58,678 bases of DNA from Candidatus Omnitrophota bacterium. Lineage in GTDB: Bacteria; Omnitrophota; Gorgyraeia; Gygaellales; Profunditerraquicolaceae. Under the pieces are notes generated by a model. That model saw nothing but the letters and a program-made list of their open reading frames with translations, was not told the DNA's origin and ran no database searches. Positions within the stretch are counted from its first letter, which is position 1. The number at the start of each line of letters is the position of its first letter. The stretch is taken from positions 1 to 58,678 of the forward strand of contig JAPLLS010000046.1 of the NCBI GenBank assembly GCA_026387435.1, written 5' to 3'. Both the position numbers and the translations under genes were made by a program. This document shows, in pieces, positions 14,111 to 34,963 of this stretch.

Positions 14111-14220
14111 GGCGTATTTCGTCCTCGGCTAACATTCGCGGATTTTGTTGAAATCCGCTCATGCCTCGGACTAAATTCGGCCCAATGACTTATGTTCGTT
14201 ATCGCTTCGCAAGTTGTGGC
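14111..14220 (-). repeat. Structured two-hairpin repeat, copy 1 (second hairpin degenerate)
   Basis: GTCC-TC-GG...CAT-TC-GCGGATTT/AAATCCGC-TC-ATG-CC-TC-GGAC; strand given is the one carrying the tandem GA mismatches. Confidence 0.85.
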
Positions 14221-14223
14221 TAA

Positions 14224-14339
14224 GTATCCGTCCTCGGTAACATTCGCAAATTTCGTTAAAATTTGCTCATACCTCGGACTAAATTCGGCCCAATAACTTA
14301 TGTCGCACTACGTGCTCCATAAGTTATGGCCTCATTTAA
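14224..14339 (-). repeat. Structured two-hairpin repeat, copy 2
   Basis: GCAAATTT/AAATTTGC stem; AAAT-TC-GGCC..ATAACTTATG-TC-GCAC-tac-GTGC-TC-CATAAGTTAT-GGCC-TC-ATTTAA. Confidence 0.9.
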
Positions 14340-14346
14340 ATTCTTT

Positions 14347-14375
14347 TTGACAAGTCCGGCTTTGTAAGGTATATT
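14347..14375 (+). promoter_or_regulatory. Sigma70-type promoter for pgk-tpiA-secG
   Basis: TTGACA-17-TATATT; AGGAG RBS before pgk. Confidence 0.75.
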
Positions 14376-14403
14376 ATTACTTCTTAATAAAAGGAGCTCA
14401 AAG

Positions 14404-15585
14404 ATGGCCAAATTGACCGTAAAAGACCTGGATTTGAAAAATAAGACTGTTTTGATGCGCGCGGACTTCAATGTTCCTTTGGATGGGGAGTTCAATATCA
14501 CTGATGATACCCGGATCAGGGAAACTTTACCTACGATTCAGTATATTCTCAAGAACGGCGCCAAAAATCTGGTTTTGATGAGCCATTTAGGCCGGCCGGA
14601 CGGCAAGAGAGTGGATAAATACAGCCTTAAACCAGTAGCCAAGAAACTGGCGGATCTGCTGGGAGAAAAGATAAATTTCCTCAGTGATTGCGTAGGTCCG
14701 GAGGTCAAAGCTGCGGTTGATTCTTCCCAGGATAGGGTTATTCTCCTGGAAAACCTCAGGTATCATGCCGAAGAAGAGGGCAATGACGAGAATTTCGCCA
14801 AGCAGCTGGCTTCTTTAGGCGAATTATTCGTTAACGACGCTTTCGGCACCGCGCACCGGGCTCATGCTTCCACAGCCGGAGTGGATAAATTCCTCAAATC
14901 CGCTGCGGGATTCCTGCTGGAAAAGGAAATAAAATACCTGGGAGACGCGGTCAGCAATCCCCAAAAGCCTTTTATGGTTATCCTCGGCGGCGCCAAGGTT
15001 TCGGATAAGATCGGCGTTATCGAGAATTTACTGCCTAAATGCGAAACGATCATTATAGGCGGGGGAATGGCCTATACTTTTTTAAAGGCCCAGGGTAAAT
15101 CAATCGGAAATTCCAAATTGGAGAAAGATAAGCTCGACTTGGCTAAGACTATCTTAGATAAAGCAGCAGCCATGAAAAAAGAGATCCTTTTGCCCATCGA
15201 CCATGTGGTTGTGGAAACAGTCGATCCCAATGCCAAGTCAGAGATAGTCGGCGAGCAGATACCAGAAGGCAAGATCGCCGTGGATATCGGCCCGAAAACC
15301 ATCGCTTTGTTCAATGCCAAGCTTCAATCCGCAAAGACTGTGGTCTGGAACGGACCGCTGGGAATATTCGAGATGGATGCTTTCAGCAAGGGGACTTTAG
15401 AAGTAGGGAAATGTTTGGCTGGATTAAAAGCAGTTACTATTATCGGCGGAGGCGATACTGCCGCCGCTGTAGCCAAGTTCAAATTACAGGATAAAATGAC
15501 CCATATTTCCACGGGCGGCGGAGCGAGCCTGGAGTTCTTAGAGGGGAAGACCTTGCCCGGGATCGCGGCGTTAACCGACAGATAA
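14404..15585 (+). CDS. pgk: Phosphoglycerate kinase
   Basis: RADFNVP, SHLGRP, DAFGTAHRAHAS, STGGGASLE motifs. Confidence 0.98.
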   Translation: MAKLTVKDLDLKNKTVLMRADFNVPLDGEFNITDDTRIRETLPTIQYILKNGAKNLVLMSHLGRPDGKRVDKYSLKPVAKKLADLLGEKINFLSDCVGPEVKAAVDSSQDRVILLENLRYHAEEEGNDENFAKQLASLGELFVNDAFGTAHRAHASTAGVDKFLKSAAGFLLEKEIKYLGDAVSNPQKPFMVILGGAKVSDKIGVIENLLPKCETIIIGGGMAYTFLKAQGKSIGNSKLEKDKLDLAKTILDKAAAMKKEILLPIDHVVVETVDPNAKSEIVGEQIPEGKIAVDIGPKTIALFNAKLQSAKTVVWNGPLGIFEMDAFSKGTLEVGKCLAGLKAVTIIGGGDTAAAVAKFKLQDKMTHISTGGGASLEFLEGKTLPGIAALTDR

Positions 15586-15595
15586 GGACACGTTA

Positions 15596-16375
15596 ATGAG
15601 AAAACCTATTATTGCGGGCAATTGGAAGATGTATAAGACCATCGGTCCGGCTATTGAGCTGGCTAACGGCTTAAAAAGGGAATTTTATAAAATCGAACCT
15701 GCGGACATTGACATTGTGCTTTGTCCGGTTTATACTTGTTTGAGCGAAGTAGCCGAGGTGATCGCCAATTCCAATATCGCCTTGGGCGCACAGGACGTTT
15801 ACTGGCAGGATGAAGGCGCGTTTACCGGTGAAGTCTCGGCGCCCATGCTTAAGGATGCCGGCTGCACTTACGTGATCATCGGCCATTCCGAGCGCCGGCA
15901 GTTCTTCGCAGAGACAAATGATACGGTTAATAAAAAAATAAAAGCGGCCTTAAAACACGGGCTTTTGCCGATAGTCTGCGTGGGCGAATCCCTGGCGGAA
16001 AGAGAAGCCAACAAAACTTTTGACGTTTTGACCGGCCATGTGCAAAACGGACTTGTTGGTCTGACCGCAGAAGAAGTTGCCAGGATCGTCATTGCTTATG
16101 AGCCGGTCTGGGCTATCGGGACCGGGAAAACCGCGACCTCCGCCCAGGCTCAGGAAGCGCATAAATATATCAGGGACCTTTTGGTCAAGTTTTACAATAA
16201 AGAGCTTGCCGCAGGTGTAAGGATCCAATACGGTGGCAGTGTTAAACCGGAAAACATCGAAGAAATAATGGCTCAGCCGGACGTTGACGGAGCTTTGGTC
16301 GGCGGGGCAAGCCTTAAAATCGAATCTTTTTCCGAAATCATAAAGCGCGGTTTGAAAGTTAAGGTGAAAAAATGA
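15596..16375 (+). CDS. tpiA: Triosephosphate isomerase
   Basis: AGNWKM, GHSERR, AYEPVWAIGTG, YGGSV motifs. Confidence 0.98.
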   Translation: MRKPIIAGNWKMYKTIGPAIELANGLKREFYKIEPADIDIVLCPVYTCLSEVAEVIANSNIALGAQDVYWQDEGAFTGEVSAPMLKDAGCTYVIIGHSERRQFFAETNDTVNKKIKAALKHGLLPIVCVGESLAEREANKTFDVLTGHVQNGLVGLTAEEVARIVIAYEPVWAIGTGKTATSAQAQEAHKYIRDLLVKFYNKELAAGVRIQYGGSVKPENIEEIMAQPDVDGALVGGASLKIESFSEIIKRGLKVKVKK

Positions 16376-16773
16376 TGAGTTTAGTGATTGCGGTCCATGT
16401 CACAGTCTGCATAGTTTTAATAACGCTGATCCTTATTCAAAGAGGAAGAGGCGGCGGTTTTATCGAGAGTTTTTCCGGCCTGGAATCCATGTTCGGCACT
16501 AAAACCAGCGCATTCCTTTCCAAGGCGACTTCGGTCCTGGCGGTAATGTTCTTTTTTACCTGCCTGTTTTTGGCTTTTCTGTCTTTAAAAGAAAGCAAAT
16601 CCTTGATGCGCGGAGTCAAGCCGAAATCCCTGATCCCCGCGGCAACAACGGGTCCGGCTAATACTACAGCAGTGGCAAACTCGGCTCAGAAGCCGGAAGC
16701 GGCCTCACAGGCCCAGCAGCAACCGTCTGTTGCAGCGACCACCGCAGCTCCAGCGAATCAGACGGCTAAATAG
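16372..16773 (+). CDS. secG: Preprotein translocase subunit SecG with Ala/Thr/Gln-rich tail
   Basis: Two TMs with LIQRGRGGG...FG; position after tpiA. Confidence 0.9.
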   Translation: MMSLVIAVHVTVCIVLITLILIQRGRGGGFIESFSGLESMFGTKTSAFLSKATSVLAVMFFFTCLFLAFLSLKESKSLMRGVKPKSLIPAATTGPANTTAVANSAQKPEAASQAQQQPSVAATTAAPANQTAK

Positions 16774-16819
16774 ATCTTCTTTAAAAGGAGTCAAAGCCTC
16801 TTTAAGGATTTTACCGGGC

Positions 16820-18433
16820 ATGCGCAGAAAAACGCTTAACATATTAAAGCTACCAATCGTCTTGGTAGCTTTTTTATTTGTTTTTATCTGTCTTCAAGCT
16901 TTTGCCCAGGATTATGGCGACGCTATTGTCGGCGCTTCCATCTCCGATGCCCGCAACCTTTTGCCGATGCTGGCTTCGGATTCAGCCTCCAGCGAAATAA
17001 GCGGGATGGTCTTTAACGGCCTGGTCAAATACGACAAGGATATAAACCTGGTCGGTGACCTGGCAAAAAGCTGGGAGGTGCAGGAGGGCGGACTGGTCAT
17101 AATTTTTCATTTAAGGGCAGATGTGCGCTGGCACGACGGATCGCCTTTTACCGCTGCTGACGTAGAATTTACCTACAGGAAAATGATCGATCCGTCCGTT
17201 CGCACGCCTTACGGAGGGGATTTTGAGCGGGTCAAGTCTTTAGAAGTTCTGGATGATCATACAATCAAGGTTACTTATAAAGAGCCATTTGTCCCGGGGT
17301 TGGCCAGTTGGGGGATGTCCATTATTCCCAGGCACCTGCTGGAAAAAGAGGATCTCAACAATACGGCTTTCAGCCGCTATCCCGTAGGAACCGGGCCTTA
17401 TAAATTCAAAACCTGGAAAACTCAGGAGAAGATAGAACTGGTTTCCAACCGCGATTACTTCGAGCACCGGCCGTTTCTCGACCGGGCCATTACCCGGGTC
17501 ATTCCGGATGAGTCAACTATTTTTCTTGAACTTCAGACTCAGGGGGTGGATTCAGCCGGGTTGACCCCGTTACAATACAGCCGCCAGACTGATACCGATT
17601 TTTTCAAAAAACATTATCGCAAATTCCGGCTTCCTGGTTTTAATTATACTTATCTCGGTTATAACTTGAGTAATCCTAAATTTTCCGATAAACGGGTCAG
17701 GCTGGCTTTGAATTACGCCGTGGACAAAACCGAGATAATCAATATCGTCCTTCTGGGTTTCGGAACAGTTTCGACAGGGCCGTTCGTTCCCCAGTCCTGG
17801 GCGTATGATCAGGGTGTTTTACCTGTCGCTTTTGATCCGGCCAAAGCCAGGAGCCTTCTGGCCGAAGCTGGTTGGAAAAGCGTCAATAAAGACGGCTGGC
17901 TGGAAAAAGACGGCCGGGTTTTTGAATTTACCATCGCCACCAATCAGGGCAATGAGGAACGCCAGAAAGTCGCTGAGATCATCCAGCGCCGGCTCAAAGG
18001 CGTGGGTATCCGGGTCAAGATCAAAGTAGTGGAGTGGAGCGTTTTTCTCTCGGAGTTTATCGATAAGAAAAATTTCGAAGCCATCCTGCTGGGTTGGTCG
18101 GTTCCCAGGGATCCGGATATCTACGATATCTGGTATTCCGGCAAGACCAAAGAGGGGGAGTTCAATTTTATCGGTTACAAGAACGATGAAGTAGATAAAC
18201 TGCTTATTGAAGGCCGGCGTATTTTTGATCAGCAAGAAAGGCAGAAAATTTACCACCGGATCCACGAGATAATTTACGACGAACAACCGTATATGTTCTT
18301 ATTCACCGCGGAAAGCCTGTCTATCTTGCATAACCGTTTTCAGGGGGTCAAGCCAGCTCCGGCCGGTATCGGTTACAATTTTATTGACTGGTGGGTGGCC
18401 AGACCCCAGCAGAAGTATAGGATAGCGAAATGA
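16820..18433 (+). CDS. Peptide ABC transporter substrate-binding protein (SBP family 5)
   Basis: DLAKSW, WHDGSPFTAADV, PVGTGPY; ATG at 16820 gives a signal peptide. Confidence 0.9.
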   Translation: MRRKTLNILKLPIVLVAFLFVFICLQAFAQDYGDAIVGASISDARNLLPMLASDSASSEISGMVFNGLVKYDKDINLVGDLAKSWEVQEGGLVIIFHLRADVRWHDGSPFTAADVEFTYRKMIDPSVRTPYGGDFERVKSLEVLDDHTIKVTYKEPFVPGLASWGMSIIPRHLLEKEDLNNTAFSRYPVGTGPYKFKTWKTQEKIELVSNRDYFEHRPFLDRAITRVIPDESTIFLELQTQGVDSAGLTPLQYSRQTDTDFFKKHYRKFRLPGFNYTYLGYNLSNPKFSDKRVRLALNYAVDKTEIINIVLLGFGTVSTGPFVPQSWAYDQGVLPVAFDPAKARSLLAEAGWKSVNKDGWLEKDGRVFEFTIATNQGNEERQKVAEIIQRRLKGVGIRVKIKVVEWSVFLSEFIDKKNFEAILLGWSVPRDPDIYDIWYSGKTKEGEFNFIGYKNDEVDKLLIEGRRIFDQQERQKIYHRIHEIIYDEQPYMFLFTAESLSILHNRFQGVKPAPAGIGYNFIDWWVARPQQKYRIAK

Positions 18434-19401
18434 TCAATTATATTCTTAAAAGATTACTAGGAATGATCCCCGTGCTTTTGGGGGTTACTGTTCTTAGTTT
18501 TGCCATTATTAATTTAGCTCCGGGCAAGTTTTCGACTCTGGACCAGGCAATGAATCCTAAGGTTTCTCCGGAATACCAGATGCGTTTGGTTAAGGCTTTT
18601 AACCTCGATAAACCCCTGCCCGTTAGGTATTGGCTTTGGCTTAAAAGTTCAATTTGTTTTGATTTCGGCCGGTCTTTCAGCGATAACCGGTTGATTATGG
18701 ACAAGATCGCAGAACGTCTTCCGGTGACTGTCGGGATCAACGTGCTTTCCCTGTTGTTCGTATTTCTGGTCGCCATCCCCATAGGTGTCAAAGCGGCGAC
18801 TAAAGCCGGCGGCGGGTTTGATACGGTTACGACCTATTTTTCTTTCTTGCTGCTGGCGGCTCCTACCTTTTGGCTGGCTTTGTTACTGATGCAGTTTTTT
18901 TGTATCCAGCTGGGTTGGCTGCCGATCTCGGGCATACATTCCCTTGATTTTGAGTACTTTAGTCCTTTGCGTAAAGTCTGGGATATATCCTGGCATTTGA
19001 TCCTGCCGGTGTTTGTTTCTTCTTTGGGAGGGTTTGCGGTCATTTCGCGGTATATGCGTTCGAGCATGATGGAGGCTTTGAACCAGCCGTATATTTACAC
19101 CGCCCGCGCCAAAGGATTGCCGCAAAGCCAGGTAGTTTACAAACACGCCCTGCGCAACGCGAGTTTACCGATAGTCACGATGATCGGGTTGTCTATCCCG
19201 GGGCTTTTGGGAGGCAGCGTTATTTTTGAGTCGATTTTTGCTCTCCCCGGCTTAGGCCAGCTCTTTTTTCAAGCGGTAATGGCCAGGGATATGCCGCTAA
19301 TAATGGCGGAAGTAGTTTTAGGTGCGGTACTGACCATGTTGGGGAATTTGATTGCTGATATCAGCTATGCTTATGTTGATCCGCGAATACGGTATAAATA
19401 A
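18430..19401 (+). CDS. Peptide ABC transporter permease (OppB/DppB-like)
   Basis: TARAKGL...KHALRNA EAA loop, ESIFALPGLG. Confidence 0.92.
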   Translation: MINYILKRLLGMIPVLLGVTVLSFAIINLAPGKFSTLDQAMNPKVSPEYQMRLVKAFNLDKPLPVRYWLWLKSSICFDFGRSFSDNRLIMDKIAERLPVTVGINVLSLLFVFLVAIPIGVKAATKAGGGFDTVTTYFSFLLLAAPTFWLALLLMQFFCIQLGWLPISGIHSLDFEYFSPLRKVWDISWHLILPVFVSSLGGFAVISRYMRSSMMEALNQPYIYTARAKGLPQSQVVYKHALRNASLPIVTMIGLSIPGLLGGSVIFESIFALPGLGQLFFQAVMARDMPLIMAEVVLGAVLTMLGNLIADISYAYVDPRIRYK

Positions 19402-20196
19402 ATGAAGAATAATCCTTATTTGTTCTGGGGGCTGGCGATAATCGTTTTTTTTAGCGGCGTAGCGCTTCTGGCGCCCTGGATCAGCCCGCATGATCCAACG
19501 CTGATCGACGGCCAGAATTTGCTTATGCCGCCGTCTCTAAAATATTGGTTAGGGACTGACGGTTTGGGCAGGGATCTCTTGAGCCGGATGATATTTGGCG
19601 CCCGGATATCGCTTTCTGTCGGTATTATCGCGGTGGGGATCTCGATCTTTCTGGGTTTGCTTCTGGGCTCTTGCGCCGGATTTTACGGAAAAACCGTTGA
19701 TTCGCTGGTCATGCGTTTCGCAGATATCATGTTGTGTATCCCTACGTTTTTTCTGATTCTGGCGGTCATCGCTATGGTCGAACCGTCGATCTATAACATC
19801 ATGATTGTAATCGGACTGACCAGCTGGATGGGTCCGGCCAGGCTTATCCGGGGAGAAATACTCTCTTTAAAAGAAAGGGAGTTCATCCAGGCTGAGCGGG
19901 CGTTGGGAGCAACTGATGCCCGGATAATCATTCGCCATCTAATCCCTAATGCGGCCGGTCCGGTACTGGTCAATGCTACTTTGGGGATCGCCGGAGCGAT
20001 CTTGCTGGAATCCAGCTTGAGTTTTTTGGGGCTGGGAGTGCAGCCGCCGATCCCCAGCTGGGGCAATATCCTGATCGAGTCTAAATCTACCCTGGGGATA
20101 GCCTGGTGGATCACCTTATTCCCCGGGCTGGCAATATTGGTCACTATTTTGGGATTTAATTTCATCTCTGAAGGGTTGAAGAAGATCATAGGTTAA
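19402..20196 (+). CDS. Peptide ABC transporter permease (OppC/DppC-like)
   Basis: LGTDGLGRD, RHLIPN, LSFLGLG...PSWG motifs. Confidence 0.92.
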   Translation: MKNNPYLFWGLAIIVFFSGVALLAPWISPHDPTLIDGQNLLMPPSLKYWLGTDGLGRDLLSRMIFGARISLSVGIIAVGISIFLGLLLGSCAGFYGKTVDSLVMRFADIMLCIPTFFLILAVIAMVEPSIYNIMIVIGLTSWMGPARLIRGEILSLKEREFIQAERALGATDARIIIRHLIPNAAGPVLVNATLGIAGAILLESSLSFLGLGVQPPIPSWGNILIESKSTLGIAWWITLFPGLAILVTILGFNFISEGLKKIIG

Positions 20197-20198
20197 CA

Positions 20199-20239
20199 AA
20201 CCAGTACAACCTAACCAGTACAACCTCGTAGGTTGTACT
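20199..20239. repeat. REP-like palindrome AGTACAACCT-CGT-AGGTTGTACT with 14-bp tandem duplication of its left side
   Basis: aaccagtacaacct x2 then cgtaggttgtact; same unit as 7550-7589. Confidence 0.75.
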
Positions 20240-20248
20240 AAGGGTTAT

Positions 20249-21043
20249 ATGGAAAAATTATTGGAAGTAAAAAACCTTAAAGTCGATTTTCAGCTGGATG
20301 ACCGGGTTATTCATGCCGTAGATGGCGTTGACCTTCGGTTGGATAAAAACGAGACCGTTGTTTTGGCCGGGGAGTCGGGTTCAGGCAAAACCATAACCGC
20401 GCTCGCGCTTACCCGGATTCTGCCCCGGAATGCCCGGATAGTTTCCGGAGAAGTGCTCCTGGAGGGGAAAAACATCCTTGATCTGGAGGAAAGACAGCTT
20501 TCTTTGATAAGAGGCGCTAGAATAGCGTACATTTTTCAGGAGCCCACCAGCTATTTAAACCCGGTTTATACTATCGGCGAACAGATAACTGAGGTAATAA
20601 TCCTGCACCAGGATAAGCTCAGAAAAGTTGCACAGGTGCAGGCTAAAAAACTGCTTGAGGCTGTTCAGATCGGCGAAGTGAACCGGGTTTTTTCCAGTTA
20701 TCCTCATCAGCTTTCCGGCGGAATGAACCAGCGGGTATTTATCGCCATGAGTTTGGCTTGTAAACCCGGCCTGCTTATCTGCGACGAACCCACGACTTCT
20801 TTGGATGTGACTATTGAAGCTCAGATATTGAAGTTGTTAATCCGGCTGAAGAAGGAAATGGGATTTTCTCTGTTGTTTATTACCCATAATTTGGCTATTG
20901 CCAATAAGATCGCCAGCAGGATCTATGTGATGTACCAAGGTAAAATAGTAGAAGAGGGGCTGACCGCCAAGATTTTTAATGATCCTCAGCATTTTCACAC
21001 CAAAGAGCTGATCACCGCTTATCAGAAGATAGGTAAACTATGA
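20249..21043 (+). CDS. Peptide ABC transporter ATPase (OppD-like)
   Basis: [25 protein letters not shown] motifs. Confidence 0.92.
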
Positions 21044-21789
21044 TCCTGGAAGCCAGAGATATCAGTAAGGAATTCAAGATAGAGCAAGGGATGTTTAAGA
21101 GTGAAGCGGGAAGAACCCTGGCCCTGGATAAGGTAAGTTTTGTTCTGGATGAATTCACCACCCTGGGGGTCGTGGGGGAATCGGGTTCGGGTAAAACAAC
21201 TTTGGCCAAGATTTTATTGGGACTGGTTCCAGCAAGCTCCGGGGAAATTGTTTTTAATGATAAGTTCATCAAAGATTTCCGCAAAGACGTCCAGATAATC
21301 TTCCAGAATCCTTATAACAGCCTGGATCCGAAGATGCGCATCAAAGACGCCCTTTATGAGCCGCTTTTGATACACAACATCTTGCCGCGGCGATCATTCC
21401 GGCTCAAGGCGACAGAATTGCTTAACCGGGTTGGGCTGGATGAGAGCGCTTTGGAAAGATACCCCGTTCAGTTTTCCGGCGGCCAGCGCCAGAGGATCTG
21501 TATTGCCCGGGCCATTGCCTGTGAACCGAAGCTTCTGGTTCTGGATGAGCCGATCTCATCTTTGGACTTGACCATCCAGGCTAAACTGCTGGAGCTCTTT
21601 TTGGAACTCAAACGTGAATTCAATCTTACCTATATATTTATCAGCCATAACCTGTGCGTAATCAAATATATTGCCGACAAAGTTATGGTCATGCACCAGG
21701 GCCGGGTAATAGAAGAGGCCAGCTCGTCGGAGATCTTCGCCAGCCCCAGCCAGGAATACACCCGCGAGCTGCTGGAAGCGGCCAAGTAG
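21040..21789 (+). CDS. Peptide ABC transporter ATPase (OppF-like)
   Basis: [25 protein letters not shown] motifs. Confidence 0.92.
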   Translation: MILEARDISKEFKIEQGMFKSEAGRTLALDKVSFVLDEFTTLGVVGESGSGKTTLAKILLGLVPASSGEIVFNDKFIKDFRKDVQIIFQNPYNSLDPKMRIKDALYEPLLIHNILPRRSFRLKATELLNRVGLDESALERYPVQFSGGQRQRICIARAIACEPKLLVLDEPISSLDLTIQAKLLELFLELKREFNLTYIFISHNLCVIKYIADKVMVMHQGRVIEEASSSEIFASPSQEYTRELLEAAK

Positions 21790-21956
21790 CGTATCTCGTC
21801 CTCGGTAACATTCGATGAGTCGATGATCTTCCCCTCGCATGGCGTTTGCAAATTCCTACGGGAATTTGCTCACACGCTCGGGGTAAATTCGCACATATGA
21901 GTTAATGTCGCTTAGCGTATTTGGTAGCGGGCTCCATAACTCATGTGCTCATTTAA
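21787..21956 (-). repeat. Structured two-hairpin repeat, copy 4 (expanded variant)
   Basis: TAGCGTATCTCGTCCTCGGTAACATTCG start; GCAAATTCC/GGAATTTGC; GCAC..ATGAGTTA/TAACTCAT-GTGC-TC-ATTTAA. Confidence 0.85.
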
Positions 21957-21976
21957 TTTATTTTTTGAAAAAACAT

Positions 21977-22004
21977 TTGACAGGTTTACAAAGTATGTTA
22001 TACT
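21977..22004 (+). promoter_or_regulatory. Sigma70-type promoter for rplM-rpsI
   Basis: TTGACA-16-TATACT with extended TGn; only 9 nt before the ATG. Confidence 0.75.
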
Positions 22005-22013
22005 TTACTACCT

Positions 22014-22451: not shown

Positions 22452-22453
22452 AT

Positions 22454-22852: not shown

Positions 22853-22882
22853 GGTAGACATCCAGGAATTTCGAAACTATGG

Positions 22883-27391: not shown

Positions 27392-28320
27392 TGAAAAAAG
27401 ATCTGATATCGATCGGTTTAATGAGTTCTGATGAGATCAAGGGGATCCTTTCTTTATCTAAAGAAATCAAGAATAATCCCGGCAAGTTCTCCAATGTTCT
27501 TAAAGGCAAATCCCTGGCTCTGATTTTTGAGAAGCCTTCGAACCGCACCTATGTTTCGTTTGCGGTGGGGATGTATCAATTGGGAGGCAACGCCCTTTAT
27601 CTGGGGCCGGAACAGATCAAGCTGGGAGTCAGGGAAACTATCCATGATGTGGCCAAGACCTTGAGCCGCTATGTCGACGGGATAGTCCTGAGGACTTTCG
27701 GCCACGAGAAGCTGCTGGAAATGGCCAGATACGCCAGTGTTCCGGTTATCAACGGTTTGTCTGATTATTCTCATCCTTGCCAAGCTTTAGCCGATACTTT
27801 CACTATCCTGGAAAAGTTCGGTGATCTTAAGAACCGGACTATGGTTTATATTGGTGACGGGAATAATGTTTGTAATTCTCTGCTTTTGATCTCGGCCAAG
27901 CTGGGGATCAATTTCAATGTCGCTACCCCCAGAGGTTACGAGCCGGACTATCTGCTTTTTAAGAATACCGTTGCCGCTGCCGCACGAAGAGGAGTTAAGA
28001 TCAGTCTTTCGCGCGATCCTGAATCCGCGGCCAAGGGAGCGGACGTGATTTACACCGATGTCTGGGCTTCGATGGGCCATGAAGATGAGGCTGCCAAGCG
28101 TAAAAGAGATTTTAAGAAATTTCAAGTGACGGGAAAGCTGGTTTCCCTGGCGAAGAAAAACTGCCTGGTGATGCATTGTCTTCCGGCGCACCGGGGGGAA
28201 GAGATATCCGATGATGCCATCGACGGCAAGCATTCCGTGGTTTTTGACCAGGCCGAGAACCGGCTGCATGTGCAAAAAGCGATACTTGTTAAATTATTAA
28301 AACACGGAGTTAAATCATGA
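27388..28320 (+). CDS. argF: Ornithine carbamoyltransferase
   Basis: FEKPSNRT, HPCQ, DVWASMG, HCLP motifs. Confidence 0.95.
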   Translation: MMKKDLISIGLMSSDEIKGILSLSKEIKNNPGKFSNVLKGKSLALIFEKPSNRTYVSFAVGMYQLGGNALYLGPEQIKLGVRETIHDVAKTLSRYVDGIVLRTFGHEKLLEMARYASVPVINGLSDYSHPCQALADTFTILEKFGDLKNRTMVYIGDGNNVCNSLLLISAKLGINFNVATPRGYEPDYLLFKNTVAAAARRGVKISLSRDPESAAKGADVIYTDVWASMGHEDEAAKRKRDFKKFQVTGKLVSLAKKNCLVMHCLPAHRGEEISDDAIDGKHSVVFDQAENRLHVQKAILVKLLKHGVKS

Positions 28321-29486
28321 AGAAGATCGTACTGGCATATTCCGGCGGGTTAGATACTTCCTGCGCCATCAAATGGCTTAAGGATAAAGGTTTTGAAGTG
28401 GTCTGTTTTATCGCTGACCTTGGTCAGGACGAAGATTTCCAGAAGATCGAAGAGCGCGCTTTGGCCGGCGGTGCTTCTAAAGTCTATGTTAAGGATCTCA
28501 AGGACGAATTTATCAAAGATTTCATTATTCCTGCGATAAAGGCTAATGCTGTTTACGAAGGGAAGTATCTTCTGGCTACCGCTTTGGGCCGCCCCTTGAT
28601 CGCCAAATACCTGGTGGAAGTCGCGCATAAGGAAAAAGCCGAATACGTCGGCCATGGCTGCACCGGCAAAGGCAATGACCAGGTCCGCCTGGAAGTGACT
28701 ACGGGCATTCTCGACCCGAAGTTAAAGATTATTGCCCCTTTGCGGGAATGGGAATTCAAGTCCCGCGAGGAAGAAATCGATTATGCGCTCAAGCACAATA
28801 TACCCATAGACGTGACCAAGAAAAAAGTTTACAGCCTGGACCGCAATCTTTGGGGCATCAGTATTGAGGCGGGGATCCTGGAAAACCTGGATCAGGAGCC
28901 TCCGGAAGACGCCTATATCATGACTAAAAGCCCTAACTCAGCCTCGACCTACCCTAAATATGTGGAGATCTCGTTCGAGAAAGGCGTGCCCAAGAAAGTA
29001 GACGGGAAAGCTTACGGTTTAAAGGAAATGATCTTTATGCTCAACGAAATCGGCGGCGCTTACGGGGTAGGCCGGTCGGATATGGTCGAGAACAGGTTGG
29101 TAGGGATCAAGTCCCGCGAGATCTACGAAGCACCGGCGGGAACCATACTTTATACCGCGCACAGGGAGTTGGAGTGTTTGGTTTTGGACCGGGAGCTGGC
29201 CCATTTCAAGGAGATCATCTCCCTGAAATACGCGGAGCTTATTTATTACGGATTGTGGTATTCGCAATTGAAGGAAGCGCTGGATGGGTTTATCAATTCC
29301 ACCCAGGAGCACGTCAGCGGTACTATCAGGCTGAAATTGTTTAAAGGCGCTTGCGTGGCTGTCGGACGGCAATCCCCGCAGTCGCTTTACAAAAAAGAGT
29401 TGGCTACTTACGGCAAGGAAGATAAGTTCGACCAGAAACTGGCTGAGGGGTTTATTAAGATATGGGGAATGCCATATAAGCGATAA
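28317..29486 (+). CDS. argG: Argininosuccinate synthase
   Basis: AYSGGLDTS, GCTGKGNDQVR, ENRLVGIKSREIYE motifs. Confidence 0.97.
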   Translation: MKKIVLAYSGGLDTSCAIKWLKDKGFEVVCFIADLGQDEDFQKIEERALAGGASKVYVKDLKDEFIKDFIIPAIKANAVYEGKYLLATALGRPLIAKYLVEVAHKEKAEYVGHGCTGKGNDQVRLEVTTGILDPKLKIIAPLREWEFKSREEEIDYALKHNIPIDVTKKKVYSLDRNLWGISIEAGILENLDQEPPEDAYIMTKSPNSASTYPKYVEISFEKGVPKKVDGKAYGLKEMIFMLNEIGGAYGVGRSDMVENRLVGIKSREIYEAPAGTILYTAHRELECLVLDRELAHFKEIISLKYAELIYYGLWYSQLKEALDGFINSTQEHVSGTIRLKLFKGACVAVGRQSPQSLYKKELATYGKEDKFDQKLAEGFIKIWGMPYKR

Positions 29487-29490
29487 CAGA

Positions 29491-29515
29491 GTCACACGTC
29501 ACATGTCACAAGTGA
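29491..29515 (+). repeat. Heptamer tandem repeat (GTCACAN)x3 + GTGA, intergenic
   Basis: gtcacac gtcacat gtcacaa gtga; same unit as in pdxA. Confidence 0.7.
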
Positions 29516-29539
29516 TACTTATTTAAAAAAGAGGAAGCT

Positions 29540-30889
29540 ATGGCGGAAAAATTGTGGGGAGGAAGGTTCAAAAAGCAGCTTGATAACGAATTTTATCTCT
29601 TCCAGAAATCGATCCAGTATGATTATAAGCTGGCGATGTATGATATTTACCACTCCATGATCCATATCAGCGCTTTGGTCTACACTAAGGTCCTGAAAGT
29701 TGAGGAAGCTCACAAGCTGGAGATGGGGCTTTTAGCCATTCTCAAAGAAGTAAAAGCGGGCAAGTTCAAATATGACCCGCTTTCCGAGGATATTCATACC
29801 GAGATCCAGAACCGGTTGGAGAAGAAATACAAAAGCATCGCTTTGAAAATGCACAGCTTTCGTTCCCGTAACGACCAGATCGTTTTTGACGAGAAGTATT
29901 ATTGCATCCACCAGGGGCTGGACATTGAGCGACTGCTGGCTAATGTTTTTGTTTCCCTGTTCGAGCTGGCGGAAAAATACAAGGATAATTTCTTTGTCGG
30001 ATACACCCATACCCGCCGGGCGCAGGTGATCAAGTTCTCCAATTACATTTTAAGCTTTGGCCGGATGCTGGAACGCGACCTCAAGCACCTGGAGTATTAC
30101 TGTAAAAATACGGAGATCTTTCTGGGATCAGGGGCGCTGGCCGGCTCTTTTATCAAAAAAGAGGATTATGATAAAGCGATCAAAGTGTTCATTAAAAAAT
30201 ATTCCCAGGATTTCCCTTTTAAGATCTCTCTGACCCGTAATTCCCTGGATAATGTCAGCTCCCGGGATTTTATTGTTGAGTTTTTAAGTATCCTGGCGAT
30301 CTTACAGACGCATCTTTCGCGCCTGGCCGAGGATTTTATCCTGTATTCGACCAAGGAGTTCAATTACCTGGGCCTTCCGGAGGAATTTTGCACGGGCTCC
30401 AGCCATATGCCGCATAAGAAGAACCCGGATTTCCTGGAGCTGGTCCGCGGTTATACCGGACGCATCCACGCTAACCTTTTTGCGGTACTGACGATCATGA
30501 AAGGGCTACCTTTGACTTACAATCGGGATATGCAGCTGGATAAAGAGCCGCTGTTTTCAACGGTTGAGATTGTAAAAAGCGAGCTCTCTATCCTGGCCAG
30601 GTTTCTTCGGGGAATAAAAATCAATACCAGGCAAGTCGATCTGGCCCTGGAAGATGAAAGTCTCTACGCTACTGAGCTGGCCGAGCATCTGGTCGGAAAA
30701 GGGCTGCCTTTTAAGACCGCCCATGAAGTTATCGGCAAACTTATCCGCTATTCCGAAGAAAAGAATGTCAAGCTCACCGACATAGTGGATGAGATATTGA
30801 AGGAATTTTCCCCTCATTTGAACAAAAATGAGATCAAAAAGATATTCAGTCCTGCTTTTGCCGTGCAGACCAAGCGTTCGGTACAGTGA
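29540..30889 (+). CDS. argH: Argininosuccinate lyase (divergent)
   Basis: KLWGGRF, EDIH, RSRNDQ, GSSHMPHKKNPD, YNRDMQ motifs. Confidence 0.93.
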   Translation: MAEKLWGGRFKKQLDNEFYLFQKSIQYDYKLAMYDIYHSMIHISALVYTKVLKVEEAHKLEMGLLAILKEVKAGKFKYDPLSEDIHTEIQNRLEKKYKSIALKMHSFRSRNDQIVFDEKYYCIHQGLDIERLLANVFVSLFELAEKYKDNFFVGYTHTRRAQVIKFSNYILSFGRMLERDLKHLEYYCKNTEIFLGSGALAGSFIKKEDYDKAIKVFIKKYSQDFPFKISLTRNSLDNVSSRDFIVEFLSILAILQTHLSRLAEDFILYSTKEFNYLGLPEEFCTGSSHMPHKKNPDFLELVRGYTGRIHANLFAVLTIMKGLPLTYNRDMQLDKEPLFSTVEIVKSELSILARFLRGIKINTRQVDLALEDESLYATELAEHLVGKGLPFKTAHEVIGKLIRYSEEKNVKLTDIVDEILKEFSPHLNKNEIKKIFSPAFAVQTKRSVQ

Positions 30890-30932
30890 TAGCCGTTTGT
30901 GAAATTTTCTAAAAGGAGAAGAACCGGAAAAT

Positions 30933-32177
30933 ATGCATGAATTCAAGTTTAAGAACAACTTACTTTACTGCGAAGATGTTCAGGTCCGCGATCTGGTCAA
31001 GAAGTATAATACCCCGTTGTATGTTTACTCCTACAATACTTTTATCGGCCATTTCCTGAAGTTAAAGGCGGCTTTTCAACAGGTTAACCCTTTGATCTGT
31101 TATTCCGTCAAAGCTAATTCCAATCTGGCTATCCTTAAAGCTTTGGTGGCTCGTGGCGCGGGGCTGGATATCGTTTCCGGCGGTGAATTGTTCCGCGCCA
31201 TCCGCGCCGGATGCGACCCGGCTAAGATCGTTTACGCTTCCGTCGGAAAGACCGATGTCGAGATAGAAGAGGCGATCCGCAAGGGTATAAAGTTTTTTAA
31301 CGTGGAGTCCCTGCCGGAACTGGAGAATATTAACCGCATCGCCGGGCGATTGCGCAAGATCACCAATGTGGCGATCAGGATAAATCCCGATGTCGCTCCC
31401 AAGACCCATCATTATATCACTACGGGTAAGCTGACTAATAAGTTCGGCATTGATTTCGCTACTGCCCGGAAAGTGCTTTTATTAGGCAGGAAATTGCGCA
31501 ACGTTAATATCAGCGGCATCCATATTCATATCGGTTCACAGATCACTGACGGCGCTCCTTTTTTGGAGGCGATCAAGAAAGTTATCGCTTTTATTTCCCA
31601 GCTTAAGCTCAAAGGAGTTAATATCGAGTACTTGAATATCGGCGGGGGCTTAGGAATAATTTATCAAAACGAAAAGCCTCAGACCGCAGATGAGTTTGCC
31701 CGGAAAGTTTTGCCCGTGTTAAAGGACAGCGGTTTAAAGATCATTATGGAGCCGGGCAGGTTTATTATCGGTTCAGCCGCGATCCTGGCGGTGAAAGTCC
31801 TTTACATCAAGAAGACTCCGCTCAAGAATTTTATGATCGTTGACGCGGGAATGAATGATCTTATCCGTCCCGCGCTGTATGACGCGCATCATGAGATCGT
31901 CCCGCTAAAAACACCTTCATCAAAAAAGACGATGAAAGTAGATGTGGTCGGCCCGATATGCGAAAGCGGGGATTTTTTGGCCAAGGCCCGGAATCTGCCG
32001 GTAACCAAAGAGGGGGATTTTCTGGCGGTAATGTGCACCGGAGCGTACGGCTTCAGCATGGCCAGTAATTATAATTCCCGCAGACGTCCGGCGGAAGTAT
32101 TAATAAAAGGCGATCAGGTAAAGCTGATCCGCAAGAGGGAAAGTCAGGAAGACCTGATCCGTAACGAGATTTGGTAA
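30933..32177 (+). CDS. lysA: Diaminopimelate decarboxylase
   Basis: YSVKAN, HIGSQ, EPGR, GPICESGD, YGFSMASNYN motifs. Confidence 0.96.
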   Translation: MHEFKFKNNLLYCEDVQVRDLVKKYNTPLYVYSYNTFIGHFLKLKAAFQQVNPLICYSVKANSNLAILKALVARGAGLDIVSGGELFRAIRAGCDPAKIVYASVGKTDVEIEEAIRKGIKFFNVESLPELENINRIAGRLRKITNVAIRINPDVAPKTHHYITTGKLTNKFGIDFATARKVLLLGRKLRNVNISGIHIHIGSQITDGAPFLEAIKKVIAFISQLKLKGVNIEYLNIGGGLGIIYQNEKPQTADEFARKVLPVLKDSGLKIIMEPGRFIIGSAAILAVKVLYIKKTPLKNFMIVDAGMNDLIRPALYDAHHEIVPLKTPSSKKTMKVDVVGPICESGDFLAKARNLPVTKEGDFLAVMCTGAYGFSMASNYNSRRRPAEVLIKGDQVKLIRKRESQEDLIRNEIW

Positions 32178-32357
32178 GTAAGTCTGAGTAAATAGAAGTA
32201 AGTTTAAGTAATAATATTATAGAATATAATATAAAATAGTAAAAAAATTATAAATATAGATAAATAAGTAAGTAGTTAGAATTGAAATAATAGAATATAG
32301 AGAGATAAATGAGTAATAAGCGAGTAATATTAAGTAGGTTTAAGTAAAACGGAGTAA
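32176..32357 (+). repeat. AT-rich intergenic region with two arrays of 10-bp-phased RAGTAR boxes
   Basis: Boxes start at 32176/32186/32196/32206 and 32311/32322/32332/32342/32352. Confidence 0.75.
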
Positions 32358-32364
32358 GTTTATA

Positions 32365-33195
32365 ATGAATAAAAAGAAGATAGATTTTGATAAACTGGAA
32401 GGTGCAGGCAATGATTTTGTCCTGATCGACAACCGTGTTTATAAGATTTCTTCGACCAAACTTCTCCAGGCTCTGGCCCGGAAAATGTGCGACAGGAAAC
32501 TCGGGGCAGGCGCGGACGGGCTTTTGGTCCTGGAAAGATCCAGGGTCGCAGATGTGAGAATGAGGATCATTAATGCTGACGGTTCCGAAGCTGAAATGTG
32601 CGGTAACGGAGCCCGGTGTTTTGCTTATAATTTTGCCAGGCAAAAGAAAGCTTTAAATAATTTTTCTCTGGCTTTGGAGACCAAAGCCGGCATTGTCAAA
32701 GCCCAGGTCTTCAAGGATAACGTTAAAATAAATCTTACTCCGCCTAAAGATTTAAAGCTGGATATTCCCTTAAAAGTAAGCGGTCGAACTATTAAAGTTA
32801 ACGTTATTAATACCGGAGTGCCGCACGCGGTAATTTTTGTCCAGGGGTTGGATAAGATCGACGTGCAAACCCTGGGCTGCGAGATCCGCAATCACCGCTA
32901 TTTCGCGCCGGCAGGGACGAACGTCAATTTTGTCGAGGTTTTAAACCGGGATTCAATGAGGATCAGGACTTATGAAAGAGGAGTTGAAGCAGAGACTTTG
33001 GCTTGCGGCACCGGCTCTACTGCGGCGGCATTAATTACGAGTATTAAGATGAACAAGAATATCGATAAGATCAACGTGCACACTGCCGGCGGCGAGATCC
33101 TGAAAATCAGTTTTAACAAGAGTAAAAACTCGTTTAGCGATGTCTGGCTGGAAGGCCGGGCCAGGTTAGTCTACAGAGGAGAATACTATGTTTGA
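32365..33195 (+). CDS. dapF: Diaminopimelate epimerase
   Basis: GAGNDF, EMCGNGARC, GVPH, ERGVEAETLACGTG motifs. Confidence 0.96.
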   Translation: MNKKKIDFDKLEGAGNDFVLIDNRVYKISSTKLLQALARKMCDRKLGAGADGLLVLERSRVADVRMRIINADGSEAEMCGNGARCFAYNFARQKKALNNFSLALETKAGIVKAQVFKDNVKINLTPPKDLKLDIPLKVSGRTIKVNVINTGVPHAVIFVQGLDKIDVQTLGCEIRNHRYFAPAGTNVNFVEVLNRDSMRIRTYERGVEAETLACGTGSTAAALITSIKMNKNIDKINVHTAGGEILKISFNKSKNSFSDVWLEGRARLVYRGEYYV

Positions 33196-34066
33196 AGGTT
33201 CGTTAGTAGCTTTGGTTACCCCGTTCAAGAACGGCAAAGTCGACGAGAAAAAATTAAAAGAGCTGATCGAATTCCAGATCAAGAACGGCACTTCCGGAAT
33301 TGTCCCCTGCGGAACGACCGGAGAATCCGCCACGCTTTCCACCGCTGAGCATGAGCGGGTGATCGAGATCACCATTGAGAAAGTGAACAAAAGGGTCCCG
33401 GTGATCGCCGGAACCGGTTCTAATTCCACCGAAGAAGCCATCAACCTGACCAAGCACGCGGCAGCCAGCGGAGCAAGCGCTTCTTTGCAGGTTTCGCCGT
33501 ATTATAACCGGCCGACCCAGAAAGGTCTTTATGAACATTTCAAGGCTATTGCCGATGCCGTGAATATTCCCATCGTCCTTTACAACATTGCCGGGCGCAC
33601 CGGAGTGAACATCGAGCCGGAGACCATTGCGAAATTAGCCAAGGATTGCAAGAACATCGTGGGGGTCAAGGAAGCTTCGGGAAATCTGGAGCAAATGTCC
33701 AGGATCAAATTTCTCTGCCCGGAAAATTTTGACCTTATTTCCGGAGACGACGGATTGACTTTGCCGGTTTTAGCGATCGGAGGCACCGGGATCATTTCGG
33801 TCGTAGCCAACATCGCGCCTAAGGATGTAGCTAATATGGTCAAGGAGTACCGGAAAGGCAATGTGGACAAAGCCCGCAGCCTGCATTACAAATTATTCCC
33901 GCTGGTCAAGGCCATGTTCATCGAGACTAATCCTATCCCGGTTAAAACGGCGATGGGTATGCTGGGTATTTGCGAGCCGGATCTGCGCTTGCCGATGACC
34001 GCGATGCTGCCGGAGAACGCCGACAAATTAAGGAAGGCCCTTAAAGAGTACGGGCTTTTAAAATAG
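33188..34066 (+). CDS. dapA: 4-hydroxy-tetrahydrodipicolinate synthase
   Basis: GTTGE, PYYNRP, LYNIAGRT, GVKEAS, SGDD motifs. Confidence 0.97.
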   Translation: MFEGSLVALVTPFKNGKVDEKKLKELIEFQIKNGTSGIVPCGTTGESATLSTAEHERVIEITIEKVNKRVPVIAGTGSNSTEEAINLTKHAAASGASASLQVSPYYNRPTQKGLYEHFKAIADAVNIPIVLYNIAGRTGVNIEPETIAKLAKDCKNIVGVKEASGNLEQMSRIKFLCPENFDLISGDDGLTLPVLAIGGTGIISVVANIAPKDVANMVKEYRKGNVDKARSLHYKLFPLVKAMFIETNPIPVKTAMGMLGICEPDLRLPMTAMLPENADKLRKALKEYGLLK

Positions 34067-34115
34067 CTAACCTGCAACATCACCTACGCGGTGATCTTGG
34101 GTAAGGAGAGTACTT

Positions 34116-34838
34116 ATGATAAAGCTAGGAGTCGCCGGAGCGATCGGCAAAATGGGAAGAAGGATCATTGAACTTGCCCAGCAGGACAAGGATTTTGAAG
34201 TTACTTTTGCCCTGGAACGCCGGGGGATCCCGGAGATAGGCAAGGAGATCGGAAAACTCAAGATCTCCTCCAATCCCGACGGAATGTTTTTGATCGACGT
34301 GTTCGTGGATTTTACCACGCCTGAGGCCAGCGACGGCCACCTGGATTACGTGGCCAGGTATAAGAAAGGGTTGGTCCTGGGAACAACCGGGTTAAGCGAG
34401 GCCCAGATCAAGAAAGTCGAAGAAGTTTCCAAAGTAGTCCCGGTAGTATTTACTCCCAATATGTCCATCGGAGTCAATACTTTATTTAATGTTCTGCCGG
34501 AAATAGCCAAGAAGCTGGGGCCGGATTACAGCATTGAAATAGTCGAGGCCCACCATAAGTTCAAGAAAGACGCGCCTTCGGGAACCGCCAAGAAAATGGC
34601 TGAGGTAATTACCGGTGTTACCGGAAAAACAATCCCGACCCATTCTGTCCGGCTGGGGGACATTTTCGGTGACCACACGGTTATCTTCTGCGGCAATTCC
34701 GAGCGGATCGAGATTAAACATCAAGCTCACACCCGCGACCTGTTCGTGGTCGGGGCCTTAAAGGCGGCAAAATGGATCGCCAACAAGCCGGCGGGATTGT
34801 ATACCATGCAGGACGTGTTGTACTCGAGTAAAGCGTGA
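34116..34838 (+). CDS. dapB: 4-hydroxy-tetrahydrodipicolinate reductase
   Basis: GAIGKMG, GTTG, EAHHKFKKDAPSGTA motifs. Confidence 0.97.
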   Translation: MIKLGVAGAIGKMGRRIIELAQQDKDFEVTFALERRGIPEIGKEIGKLKISSNPDGMFLIDVFVDFTTPEASDGHLDYVARYKKGLVLGTTGLSEAQIKKVEEVSKVVPVVFTPNMSIGVNTLFNVLPEIAKKLGPDYSIEIVEAHHKFKKDAPSGTAKKMAEVITGVTGKTIPTHSVRLGDIFGDHTVIFCGNSERIEIKHQAHTRDLFVVGALKAAKWIANKPAGLYTMQDVLYSSKA

Positions 34839-34849
34839 CAGGTCATTAG

Positions 34850-34963
34850 TTCGTCCTCGGCAGACATTCGCGGATTTCATTAAAATCCGCTCATGCCACG
34901 GACTAAATTCGGCCCAATAACTTATGTCGCACTTCGTGCTCCATAAGTTATGGCCTCATTTAA
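34850..34963 (-). repeat. Structured two-hairpin repeat, copy 3
   Basis: Near-identical to copies 1 and 2; GCAC-ttc-GTGC loop; ends CTCATTTAA directly before the RBS of the next gene. Confidence 0.9.

Follow-up and report, generated by a model that had tools for sequence, protein, structure and literature searches.

The described repeats closest to the element considered here are ERIC, REP/BIME, and BOX, all of them structured, transcribed intergenic repeats. REPs are single palindromes of 20 to 40 nt that carry a conserved GTAG on their 5' side and flank their own RAYT gene, and some of them stabilize the upstream mRNA; the BOX elements of Streptococcus pneumoniae are modular, being composed of separable hairpin-forming boxes that are shuffled, repeated, and transcribed. 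In the passages of PMC2229807 that treat such repeats, the ERIC/BOX-like class is characterized by a length of 100 to 200 bp, an intergenic location, multiple copies, predicted long stem-loops, and the lack of a known transposase; ERIC is described there as being co-transcribed with neighboring genes, with its orientation mattering for the effect on mRNA stability, and the mobilization of ERIC, REP/BIME, and BOX by transposases is said to be so far without experimental support. The stretch of DNA analyzed in this study (the window) comprises 58,678 nt of contig JAPLLS010000046.1 from assembly GCA_026387435.1, a Candidatus Omnitrophota bacterium, and the five copies of a two-hairpin element that it contains belong to a large, phylum-wide family of small (about 115- to 135-nt), noncoding, intergenic two-hairpin repeats in Omnitrophota. 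These are uncultured, mostly very small bacteria that are known almost solely through metagenomes, and no description of their noncoding DNA was found in the literature searched. Covariation within the family is very strong, and comparisons of sequences show selection on the folded single-stranded form, mismatches included. With a confidence little better than even, we favor an ERIC/REP-like structured repeat, that is, a hairpin module of mobile derivation retained as a cis-acting transcript structure, the RNA step being one that we infer.

A sequence-only reading of the window had proposed five copies of the element, one of them inverted. The sequence and a covariance model place all five at the positions claimed (by the model, 14112 to 14229, 14222 to 14339, 21822 to 21956, and 34844 to 34963 on the plus strand and 22915 to 23048 on the minus strand), and a covariance-model scan of the whole window gave no sixth copy. 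The copies are as follows, with covariance-model scores in bits.

14112 to 14220, plus strand: copy c1, short (A) subfamily, with the 3' end truncated at the tandem junction with c2; 92.7 bits
14222 to 14339, plus strand: copy c2, complete A-type, with hairpin 1 at 14230 to 14279 and hairpin 2 at 14280 to 14338; 126.2 bits
21787 to 21814, plus strand: A-type 5' fragment, from the TAG stop of the upstream ABC ATPase gene into the hairpin-1 5' arm
21815 to 21956, plus strand: copy c3, long (B) subfamily, with a larger hairpin-2 apical loop; 112.4 bits
22915 to 23048, minus strand: copy c5, inverted, with a B-type hairpin 2 and an A-like hairpin 1; 117.2 bits
34844 to 34963, plus strand: copy c4, complete A-type, with hairpin 1 at 34853 to 34903 and hairpin 2 at 34904 to 34962; 133.3 bits

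Every stem variant quoted in the sequence-only reading was found in the sequence with its pairing kept, and the terminus that it ascribed to four copies, CTCATTTAA, is indeed common to c2, c3, c4, and the inverted c5, c1 being cut short at its junction with c2 (...GTGGC, then TAAGTATC). The C-GTA-G and C-GAA-G loops that it read on the minus strand are present as C-G-closed triloops in c2 (GTA) and c4 (GAA). The region from 21787 to 21956 is a composite in which the full long-type c3 is nested behind a short-type 5' fragment, and the joining in c5 of a B-type hairpin 2 to an A-like hairpin 1 implies that modules have been exchanged. The element consists of two neighboring hairpins: hairpin 1 (~50 nt) has an outer and an inner helix and is variable, and hairpin 2 (~60 nt), with three stacked helices and a 2-nt bulge, is the conserved module and ends 3' in CTCATT plus 3 nt. 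The helices are interrupted by TC-opposite-TC internal loops that read 5'-GA/3'-AG on the other strand; their near-invariance, as claimed beforehand, was borne out, and their number was corrected from three to four per element, two in each hairpin.

The host genome (G000) is a metagenome-assembled genome (MAG) of 136 contigs, 1.78 Mb, and 47% GC. A hidden Markov model (HMM) built from the five window copies identified 32 full-length copies in it at an E value below 1e-15, and the covariance model R1 (121 positions, 35 pairs) gave 37 matches, namely, these 32, one diverged copy, and four opposite-strand echoes, for a full-length total of 33 copies. Subfamily A (about 115 to 120 nt) has 17 copies with a mean pairwise identity of 84%, and subfamily B (about 135 nt), with a larger hairpin-2 apical loop, has 15 copies with a mean identity of 82%; between the two subfamilies, identity is 58%. 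A small open reading frame (ORF) in A-type copies, with its ATG within hairpin 1, was considered and dropped, as B-type copies do not have it. TC is present on both sides in 30 of the 32 copies at the hairpin-1 outer loop, in 27 at the hairpin-1 inner loop, in 25 at the hairpin-2 outer loop, and in 26 at the hairpin-2 inner loop. The hairpin-2 outer loop has been turned into Watson-Crick pairs in four copies, as TC/GA in three and GA/TC in one (on contigs C80 and C3 and at 9380 to 9516 and 11965 to 12099 of C112), which looks as though one arm had served as the template for the other; loss of the mismatch can thus happen, although retention is the rule almost everywhere.

When the 32 copies are aligned with MAFFT, pairing holds in 98.5% of cells, and both sides have changed in 17 of the 35 pairs. 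On four of five measures of covariation, none of 500 shuffles reached the observed value (6 of 500 did so on the fifth), and when the 3' partner was slid by 1 to 3 columns as a control, pairing fell to 26 to 49%. Among 108 copies from other species, 96.1% of cells pair, 31 of 35 pairs have compensatory changes, and no shuffle out of 500 reached the observed value on any of the five measures, in an alignment that, unlike that of the 32 copies, was fitted to the covariance model and so favors pairing. The search pattern, described below, left the 5' TC of hairpin 2 unconstrained at both loops; its first base is nonetheless T in 105 of 108 copies at both loops, and its second base is nearly always C at the outer loop (106 of 108), with 74 C and 31 T among the 108 copies at the inner loop. 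Complete copies fold with z scores of about -7 to -9 relative to shuffles, on both strands and with RNA or DNA parameters. Within the window, z scores are -7.2 to -8.8 on either strand for c2 and c4, -3.2 to -5.6 for c3 and c5, and a weak -1.4 and -2.7 for c1, because its hairpin 2 is incomplete. The GA strand is slightly the more stable, by 1 to 3 kcal/mol with DNA parameters and 3 to 10 kcal/mol with RNA parameters.

Resident copies can be compared with those of a congener (G001), in which flanking sequences are about 82% identical to those of G000. At five sites occupied by the same subfamily in both genomes, hairpin 2 was compared position by position: differences were found at 3 of 218 stem positions, 0 of 40 TC-loop positions, and 17 of 76 loop and bulge positions (3 of 258 for stems plus TC loops versus 17 of 76 for loops and bulges; Fisher P = 1.6e-9), with flanks that are 69 to 87% identical. 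Uncorrected script counts were 8 of 218, 1 of 40, and 17 of 76, respectively (Fisher P = 1.4e-6), the corrections being three stem differences from a G001 segment that was 3 nt short and two stem differences and one TC difference from a 20-nt insertion misplaced by MAFFT. Two of the three remaining stem changes make up one compensatory pair (T-A to C-G), and the third leads to T.G on the TC strand. The hairpin 2 of c5 differs from its G001 orthologue at 0 of 42 stem and 5 of 22 loop positions, and that of c2, also common to G001, shows two differences, both of them loop bases. Stems and TC loops have thus remained nearly unchanged while loops and flanks diverged, so that resident copies are under purifying selection for the fold; since the loops differ, gene conversion or recent reinsertion, which would homogenize loops too, does not account for the pattern.

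Two hairpins of this kind are distributed far beyond one genome. An exact scan of one genome per species (185,579 species) with a 23-letter degenerate pattern for the hairpin-2 3' arm gave at least 116 stretches; among the 80 matches listed, 66 were labeled Omnitrophota or Omnitrophica (including Candidatus Zapsychrus, which belongs to Omnitrophota), 9 Planctomycetes-type, 4 "bacterium," and 1 Neomarinimicrobiota. The covariance model detected the element in 31 of 41 same-order relatives, at 1 to 55 matches apiece, and 10 of the 41 have none; in an even sample of the phylum, for which 23 candidates per genome were scored, it was found at an E value of ≤1e-5 in 83 of 151 genomes and in 69 of the 125 high-quality ones. 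Across the phylum, hairpin 2 is conserved, and hairpin 1 differs in length and sequence, at times amounting to no more than a small stem-loop; some lineages have a second hairpin 2, inverted, on the far side of hairpin 1. In two further collections, blastn returned no plasmid match, and the pattern gave no matches in viral contigs.

That the repeat was undescribed, as the sequence-only reading had supposed, agrees with the comparisons made. The whole window gave no Rfam 15 match at gathering score, and in a search of six element-bearing loci at an E value of ≤1, no element reached the gathering score of a family; one weak hit partially overlapped a copy (C0465, 28 bits against a required 40; E = 0.14), a subthreshold score at the level of chance. 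The sole above-threshold match among the six loci was a flavin mononucleotide (FMN) riboswitch in a relative (L046, 1707 to 1847, minus strand; 94 bits, gathering score 66), about 35 nt from a copy. No description of the element was found in the literature on Omnitrophota or Omnitrophica repeats, extragenic palindromes, and RNA motifs, and the words "intergenic," "MITE," "palindrom-," and "hairpin" are absent from the text passages of a 2026 preprint on 176 complete Omnitrophota genomes (10.64898/2026.06.07.730766). Together with the covariation and with orthologous sites that are empty in relatives, the lack of an Rfam match upholds the core of the earlier interpretation, namely, an undescribed structured repeat that is selected for fold rather than sequence and gained and lost between relatives.

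Occupancy is not identical among relatives. The sites of c3 and c4 hold no element in G001, and c1 has no counterpart at the orthologous site there, with c2 and c5 common to both genomes; L186, the closest metagenome relative, and a contig of sequencing run X3 likewise lack an element at the c3 site, and the covariance model found no element at the c5 site of L186 or of a further relative, L187. At the c3 site of L187, the element has the same ends and a different interior. L187 also carries another short hairpin repeat (AAAGTCGGGGAC.GTCCCCGACTTT) at its c3 (about 1290 to 1460) and c5 (about 2400 to 2470) sites, and at the former, it lies between the ends of an A-type element. The 21 matches in G001 fall at 16 sites, of which 11 are occupied in G000 (two of them less surely), 3 are empty, and 2 could not be placed. 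The difference in occupancy between congeners indicates that copies have been gained and lost. Shared sites often differ by having an A copy in one genome and a B copy in the other or a B copy nested behind an A 5' fragment, and hairpin 1 can be exchanged while hairpin 2 stays; such swapping of hairpin-1 modules between orthologues shows recombination among copies. On our reading of the alignment, 9 of the 15 B copies in G000 adjoin A fragments, the left junction usually falling in the hairpin-1 5' arm or loop of A and the right junction at one of three TAA sites in A. A tandem junction of the form ...ATGGC followed by T(T/A)AGTATC recurs twice in G000 and once in a contig of run X1. In rplM-rpsI spacers from 80 metagenome loci, elements were present in 12 (upstream of rplM in 8, with both orientations represented, and downstream of rpsI in 4), which points to repeated independent arrivals in the same spacers. 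From the empty sites, the tandem copies, and the nesting, it follows that the family is non-autonomous and has a mobile origin; its copies have multiplied and continue to be gained, lost, and remodeled.

Short-read contigs from four runs contained no near-identical empty allele. A contig from the relative in run X3 has a replaced joint across c3, and run X1 has an extra tandem joint. Over 14050 to 34049 of the window, contigs of run X1, the probable source sample, break off at a repeat or within one (21852, 22944, and 22918 being examples); short-read (Logan) contigs thus stop at the repeats, and the elements therefore fragment assemblies of this genome. Two G001 copies (C2, 24330 to 24467, and C75, 22991 to 23146; loci L285 and L288) carry an ~20-nt palindromic mini-insertion (CTGCCT..GGCAGGCAGGC) at the same place, inside the hairpin-2 outer TC loop, and the orthologous G000 copies are without it; possibly, it represents a third nested repeat, of smaller size, with the mismatch loop as its target.

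All copies are intergenic, and many span the gap from a stop codon to the start signals of the next gene. In some 10 co-oriented G000 copies, the conserved left end lies no more than about 5 nt from the upstream stop; in 9 of the 32 aligned copies, the last base directly precedes a Shine-Dalgarno motif and start codon, and in about eight more, as we read the alignment, a T-rich tract follows, often with a TTGACA box. A Shine-Dalgarno-like motif occurs within 15 nt of the 3' end in 43 of 117 copies from the phylum sample. The earlier placement of the element at operon boundaries is accordingly right for the copies that lie between a stop codon and the next promoter and wrong for others, which lie within operons, directly before a Shine-Dalgarno site. 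In the window (gene names from Pfam), c1 and c2 have the stop codon of an ABC ATPase gene (14093) upstream and a promoter-like site of pgk downstream, c3 lies between a second ABC ATPase gene and a promoter-like site of rplM, and c4 extends from the dapB stop (34838) to the Shine-Dalgarno site and ATG (34973) of an M42 peptidase gene; c5 is flanked on one side by the rpsI terminator and on the other by a promoter-like site of a semialdehyde-dehydrogenase-family gene. Downstream of c2 and c3, we read T-rich tracts followed by the promoter-like site, and no other terminator is predicted; the elements themselves were not scored as terminators by a simple terminator scan. Three neighboring features, outside the repeats, provide context.

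14347 to 14375, plus strand: pgk promoter-like site (TTGACA, 17 nt, TATATT; 11 of 12 consensus matches), 8 nt past c2
21977 to 22004, plus strand: rplM-rpsI promoter-like site, found with or without the element
22881 to 22910, plus strand: canonical intrinsic terminator after rpsI, abutting the inverted c5

The start of the pgk site, TTGACAA, is conserved in G001, and the aligned G001 segment stops there. On the minus strand at 23130 to 23163, two promoter-like matches (10 of 12 and 9 of 12) would read through c5 in its sense direction; they lie in AT-rich DNA and may be due to chance.

According to crude ORF calls, 22 copies are co-oriented with both neighbors and 6 are opposed to both (P = 0.004), and on contigs of at least 10 kb, 19 of 26 copies run in the direction of most of the coding DNA (P = 0.03). 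Among the copies of the phylum sample, 49 share their strand with the downstream gene and 21 lie on the opposite one (P = 0.001); for 41, the relation is unclear, and 6 could not be assessed. In about 70% of copies, the mRNA sense is that of the TC strand. On element-bearing contigs, 86 to 100% of coding DNA lies on one strand (98% in the window), and coding-strand bias correlates with GC skew (r = 0.91; 57 contigs of at least 10 kb), so that the directions of transcription and replication are inseparable in G000. Stem cells read on the TC strand contain 77 G.T versus 29 A.C combinations in the 108 copies (P = 3e-6), 18 versus 7 in the 32 G000 copies, 21 versus 4 in co-oriented copies, and 21 versus 10 in inverted copies (P = 0.07). 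This excess of wobble pairs, the co-orientation, and the adjacency to Shine-Dalgarno sites point to the TC strand and to RNA. We suggest that the element would function in cis as a folded segment of the transcript, the TC (UC) strand being sense; situated immediately past stop codons and shortly ahead of the following promoter or Shine-Dalgarno site, it could serve as a 3'-end or intercistronic hairpin for stabilization, termination, or processing, and the UC/UC loops may constitute a mark that is read by a conserved host factor.

The sequence-only reading had laid its emphasis on the other strand and proposed a REP/REPIN- or PATE-like single-stranded DNA (ssDNA) element, mobilized by a Y1 HUH enzyme (RAYT or the TnpA of IS200/IS605), with the GA strand active and with sheared tandem G.A pairs and GNA triloops stabilizing DNA hairpins. 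The complement of the TC loops is indeed 5'-GA/3'-AG, two of three standing in the Y-GA-R context of sheared pairs, and the small advantage of the GA strand in folding, together with the lack of terminal inverted repeats (local alignment of the first 35 nt with the reverse-complemented last 35 nt scores 4, and shuffles average 5.0 to 5.2) and the REPIN-like layout of some lineages, would suit such an element. The apical triloop on the GA strand is GNA in 11 of 13 intact A-type copies, and d(GNA) loops closed by C-G are reported to be very stable in the abstracts of PMC13037366 and PMC3201870. The triloop put forward as a hallmark is not conserved, however, either between orthologues (TAC in c2 and TTT, hence AAA on the other strand, in G001) or across the phylum, where the apical part of hairpin 2 varies, and the argument from DNA mini-hairpins is thereby weakened. 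The two readings conflict, the GA strand being favored by G.A motifs and GNA loops and the TC strand by wobble tolerance, and with the latter also the sense strand of most copies, the emphasis on the GA strand is doubtful.

A linked HUH, RAYT, or TnpA gene, which that proposal led one to seek, was not found. Y1 genes (Y1_Tnp, PF01797) are common, in 30 of 41 genomes, and their presence shows no association with that of the element (24 of 31 carriers and 6 of 10 noncarriers; Fisher P = 0.41, a comparison that is weak alone since MAGs are incomplete); four genomes with 17 to 44 matches have no Y1 match (G028, which is 94% complete, G022, G027, and G032). No element was found at 10 Y1 loci of relatives (covariance model with filters off, E < 0.1) or by HMM on the three Y1-bearing contigs of G000. 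One of the latter, C18, encodes a 166-amino-acid RAYT-like Y1 HUH protein (12822 to 13154, minus strand), and the roughly 250 nt to either side of the gene hold arrays of a different, 13-nt palindrome, GGAAACACTTTCC, and its variants, a degenerate form of which has 20 matches in G000; this gene and its own palindromes look like a separate, classical REP-RAYT system. TnpB (PF07282) is rare, occurring in 6 of 41 genomes and in neither G000 nor G001, and was rejected as a partner along with Y1/RAYT. Flanking ORFs of 167 loci yielded no recurrent partner family, the largest real cluster being an ABC-type ATPase at 6 loci, and no autonomous form, with a gene enclosed by half-elements, was found in G000. 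With regard to a possible TA or TAA target duplication, about 17 of the 32 copies, on our reading, carry TA(A/G) at their left boundary, and 28 carry TAA at the right end; flanking trinucleotides differ in four of the five youngest copies, and the available filled and empty alleles are too diverged to fix the ends. Selection on resident copies would likewise not be predicted for a purely selfish ssDNA transposon. A HUH/ssDNA mechanism is therefore not supported, and we consider mobilization by a Y1 enzyme to be unlikely.

Several observations weigh against a function in transcripts. The inverted c5 is as well conserved as the other copies even though it lies behind a strong terminator, and its conservation fits a DNA-level or orientation-independent role better; about 27 to 30% of all copies are inverted; and gene strand and replication direction are fully confounded in G000. 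The wobble asymmetry, being stronger in co-oriented copies, could be partly mutational, and to our knowledge, no RNA recognition motif consisting of tandem U.C mismatches has been described, whereas the tandem G.A of the other strand is one. The orthologue test also compared only copies that the model recognized. A DNA-level structural site, in which a cruciform or transient single-strand fold is bound by a conserved protein of the host (a nucleoid, replication, or recombination protein or a topoisomerase), as with REP/BIME in E. coli, and in which the orientation bias stems from replication rather than transcription, would account for the retention and conservation of both orientations, for an orientation that tracks GC skew as well as it tracks genes, and for conserved mismatch identity, which a plain exonuclease-blocking RNA hairpin would not need. 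We judge it a shade less probable than Y1 mobilization: no candidate protein was found, copies sit at tight operon junctions among stop codons and Shine-Dalgarno sites with no regular chromosomal spacing, and a range of 1 to 55 matches per carrier, with none in a quarter of the relatives (10 of 41), is odd for a core chromosomal function. Least probable of all, in our estimation, is a purely selfish miniature inverted-repeat transposable element (MITE) with no host-level role, whose apparent conservation would come from recent spread, gene conversion, or detection bias. Frequent turnover and nesting, the swaps of hairpin 1 between orthologues, and the restriction to recognized copies would be expected of it, but homogenizing processes do not leave loops that differ at 17 of 76 positions beside stems and TC loops that differ at 3 of 258, paralogues within the genome (82 to 84% identical on average) resemble each other less than orthologous hairpin-2 stems do, and copies, which score 100 to 135 bits, would remain well clear of the detection threshold even after some 15% of neutral decay. 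A bolder reading, which we hold to be as improbable as the Y1 model, makes hairpin 2 the ligand of an Omnitrophota-conserved and as yet unrecognized protein, either a structure-specific mobilizing enzyme that is neither HUH nor DDE or a dedicated RNA-binding regulator. An enzyme acting on the transcript would make this a bacterial repeat with RNA-mediated spread, similar to short interspersed nuclear elements (SINEs); a regulator would turn hundreds of mobile hairpins into a genome-wide posttranscriptional control network in very small cells.

The family goes beyond an ordinary REP in that resident copies are under purifying selection, the signatures of RAYT, IS200/IS605, TnpB, and DDE-type MITEs all fail, and the two strands give opposite readings. 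The element points to a partner and offers a precise bait for finding it. With covarying stems, four frozen tandem mismatches, and drifting loops, in paralogues and orthologues alike, it also represents a clean natural experiment in structure-based selection. Being phylum specific, multicopy, and polymorphic among congeners, the family is a ready marker, and its practical effect is to break short-read assemblies of Omnitrophota.

Known systems differ from the element to various extents. The attC sites of integrons are single hairpins with R''/R' boxes (RYYYAAC/GTTRRRY), arranged in cassette arrays next to intI; we rejected this identity, as the core (...ATAAC/GTTATGG) does not fit GTTRRRY and the copies are scattered among housekeeping genes (pgk, rplM-rpsI, and dapB), although no search for intI was made. 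PATEs, which derive from IS200/IS605, similarly have no terminal inverted repeats and carry subterminal hairpins at both ends, and the orientation bias seen here could reflect insertion into the lagging-strand template, as with such elements; in this case, however, no parent insertion sequence with these ends was found, TnpA-like genes are unlinked, TnpB is rare, and no fixed 4- to 5-nt target lies by the left end. BOX resembles the element in its modular hairpins and differs in sequence and phylum, further comparison having been made through Rfam alone; we know of no report of invariant tandem mismatches in BOX. The Correia/NEMIS and RUP MITEs are similar in size, intergenic position, and expected RNA-level effects (PMC2229807), and TA stands at both termini in about half of our copies, but they have terminal inverted repeats of 9 to 24 bp and clear TA duplications made by DDE transposases, and the Omnitrophota element has no such repeats.

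The likeness to REP/BIME and REPIN-RAYT lies in short, structured intergenic repeats that are recognized by shape and occur in tandem or inverted arrangement, and the order of inverted hairpin 2, hairpin 1, and hairpin 2 in some Omnitrophota lineages recalls a REPIN. In contrast to REPs, the hairpins are 50 to 60 nt long and two in number, no Y1 gene is linked to or co-occurs with them, and GTAG precedes the left end in only some copies. ERIC (also called IRU) is closest in size, at about 127 bp compared with 115 to 135 nt, and shares the intergenic location, the predicted long stem-loops, the wide conservation, the variable copy number, and the lack of a demonstrated transposase. According to Table 1 of PMC2229807, however, ERIC forms a single long, imperfect palindrome that has short terminal inverted repeats and a TA duplication; the Omnitrophota element comprises two separate hairpins with four conserved TC/TC loops and lacks terminal inverted repeats, and a blastn search with c2 found no match among 20,395 E. 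coli records, ERIC copies included. Thus, in its length of 100 to 200 bp, its intergenic and multicopy nature, its predicted long stem-loops in a transcript that is itself predicted, and its lack of a known transposase, the Omnitrophota repeat has the features by which the ERIC/BOX-like class is described.

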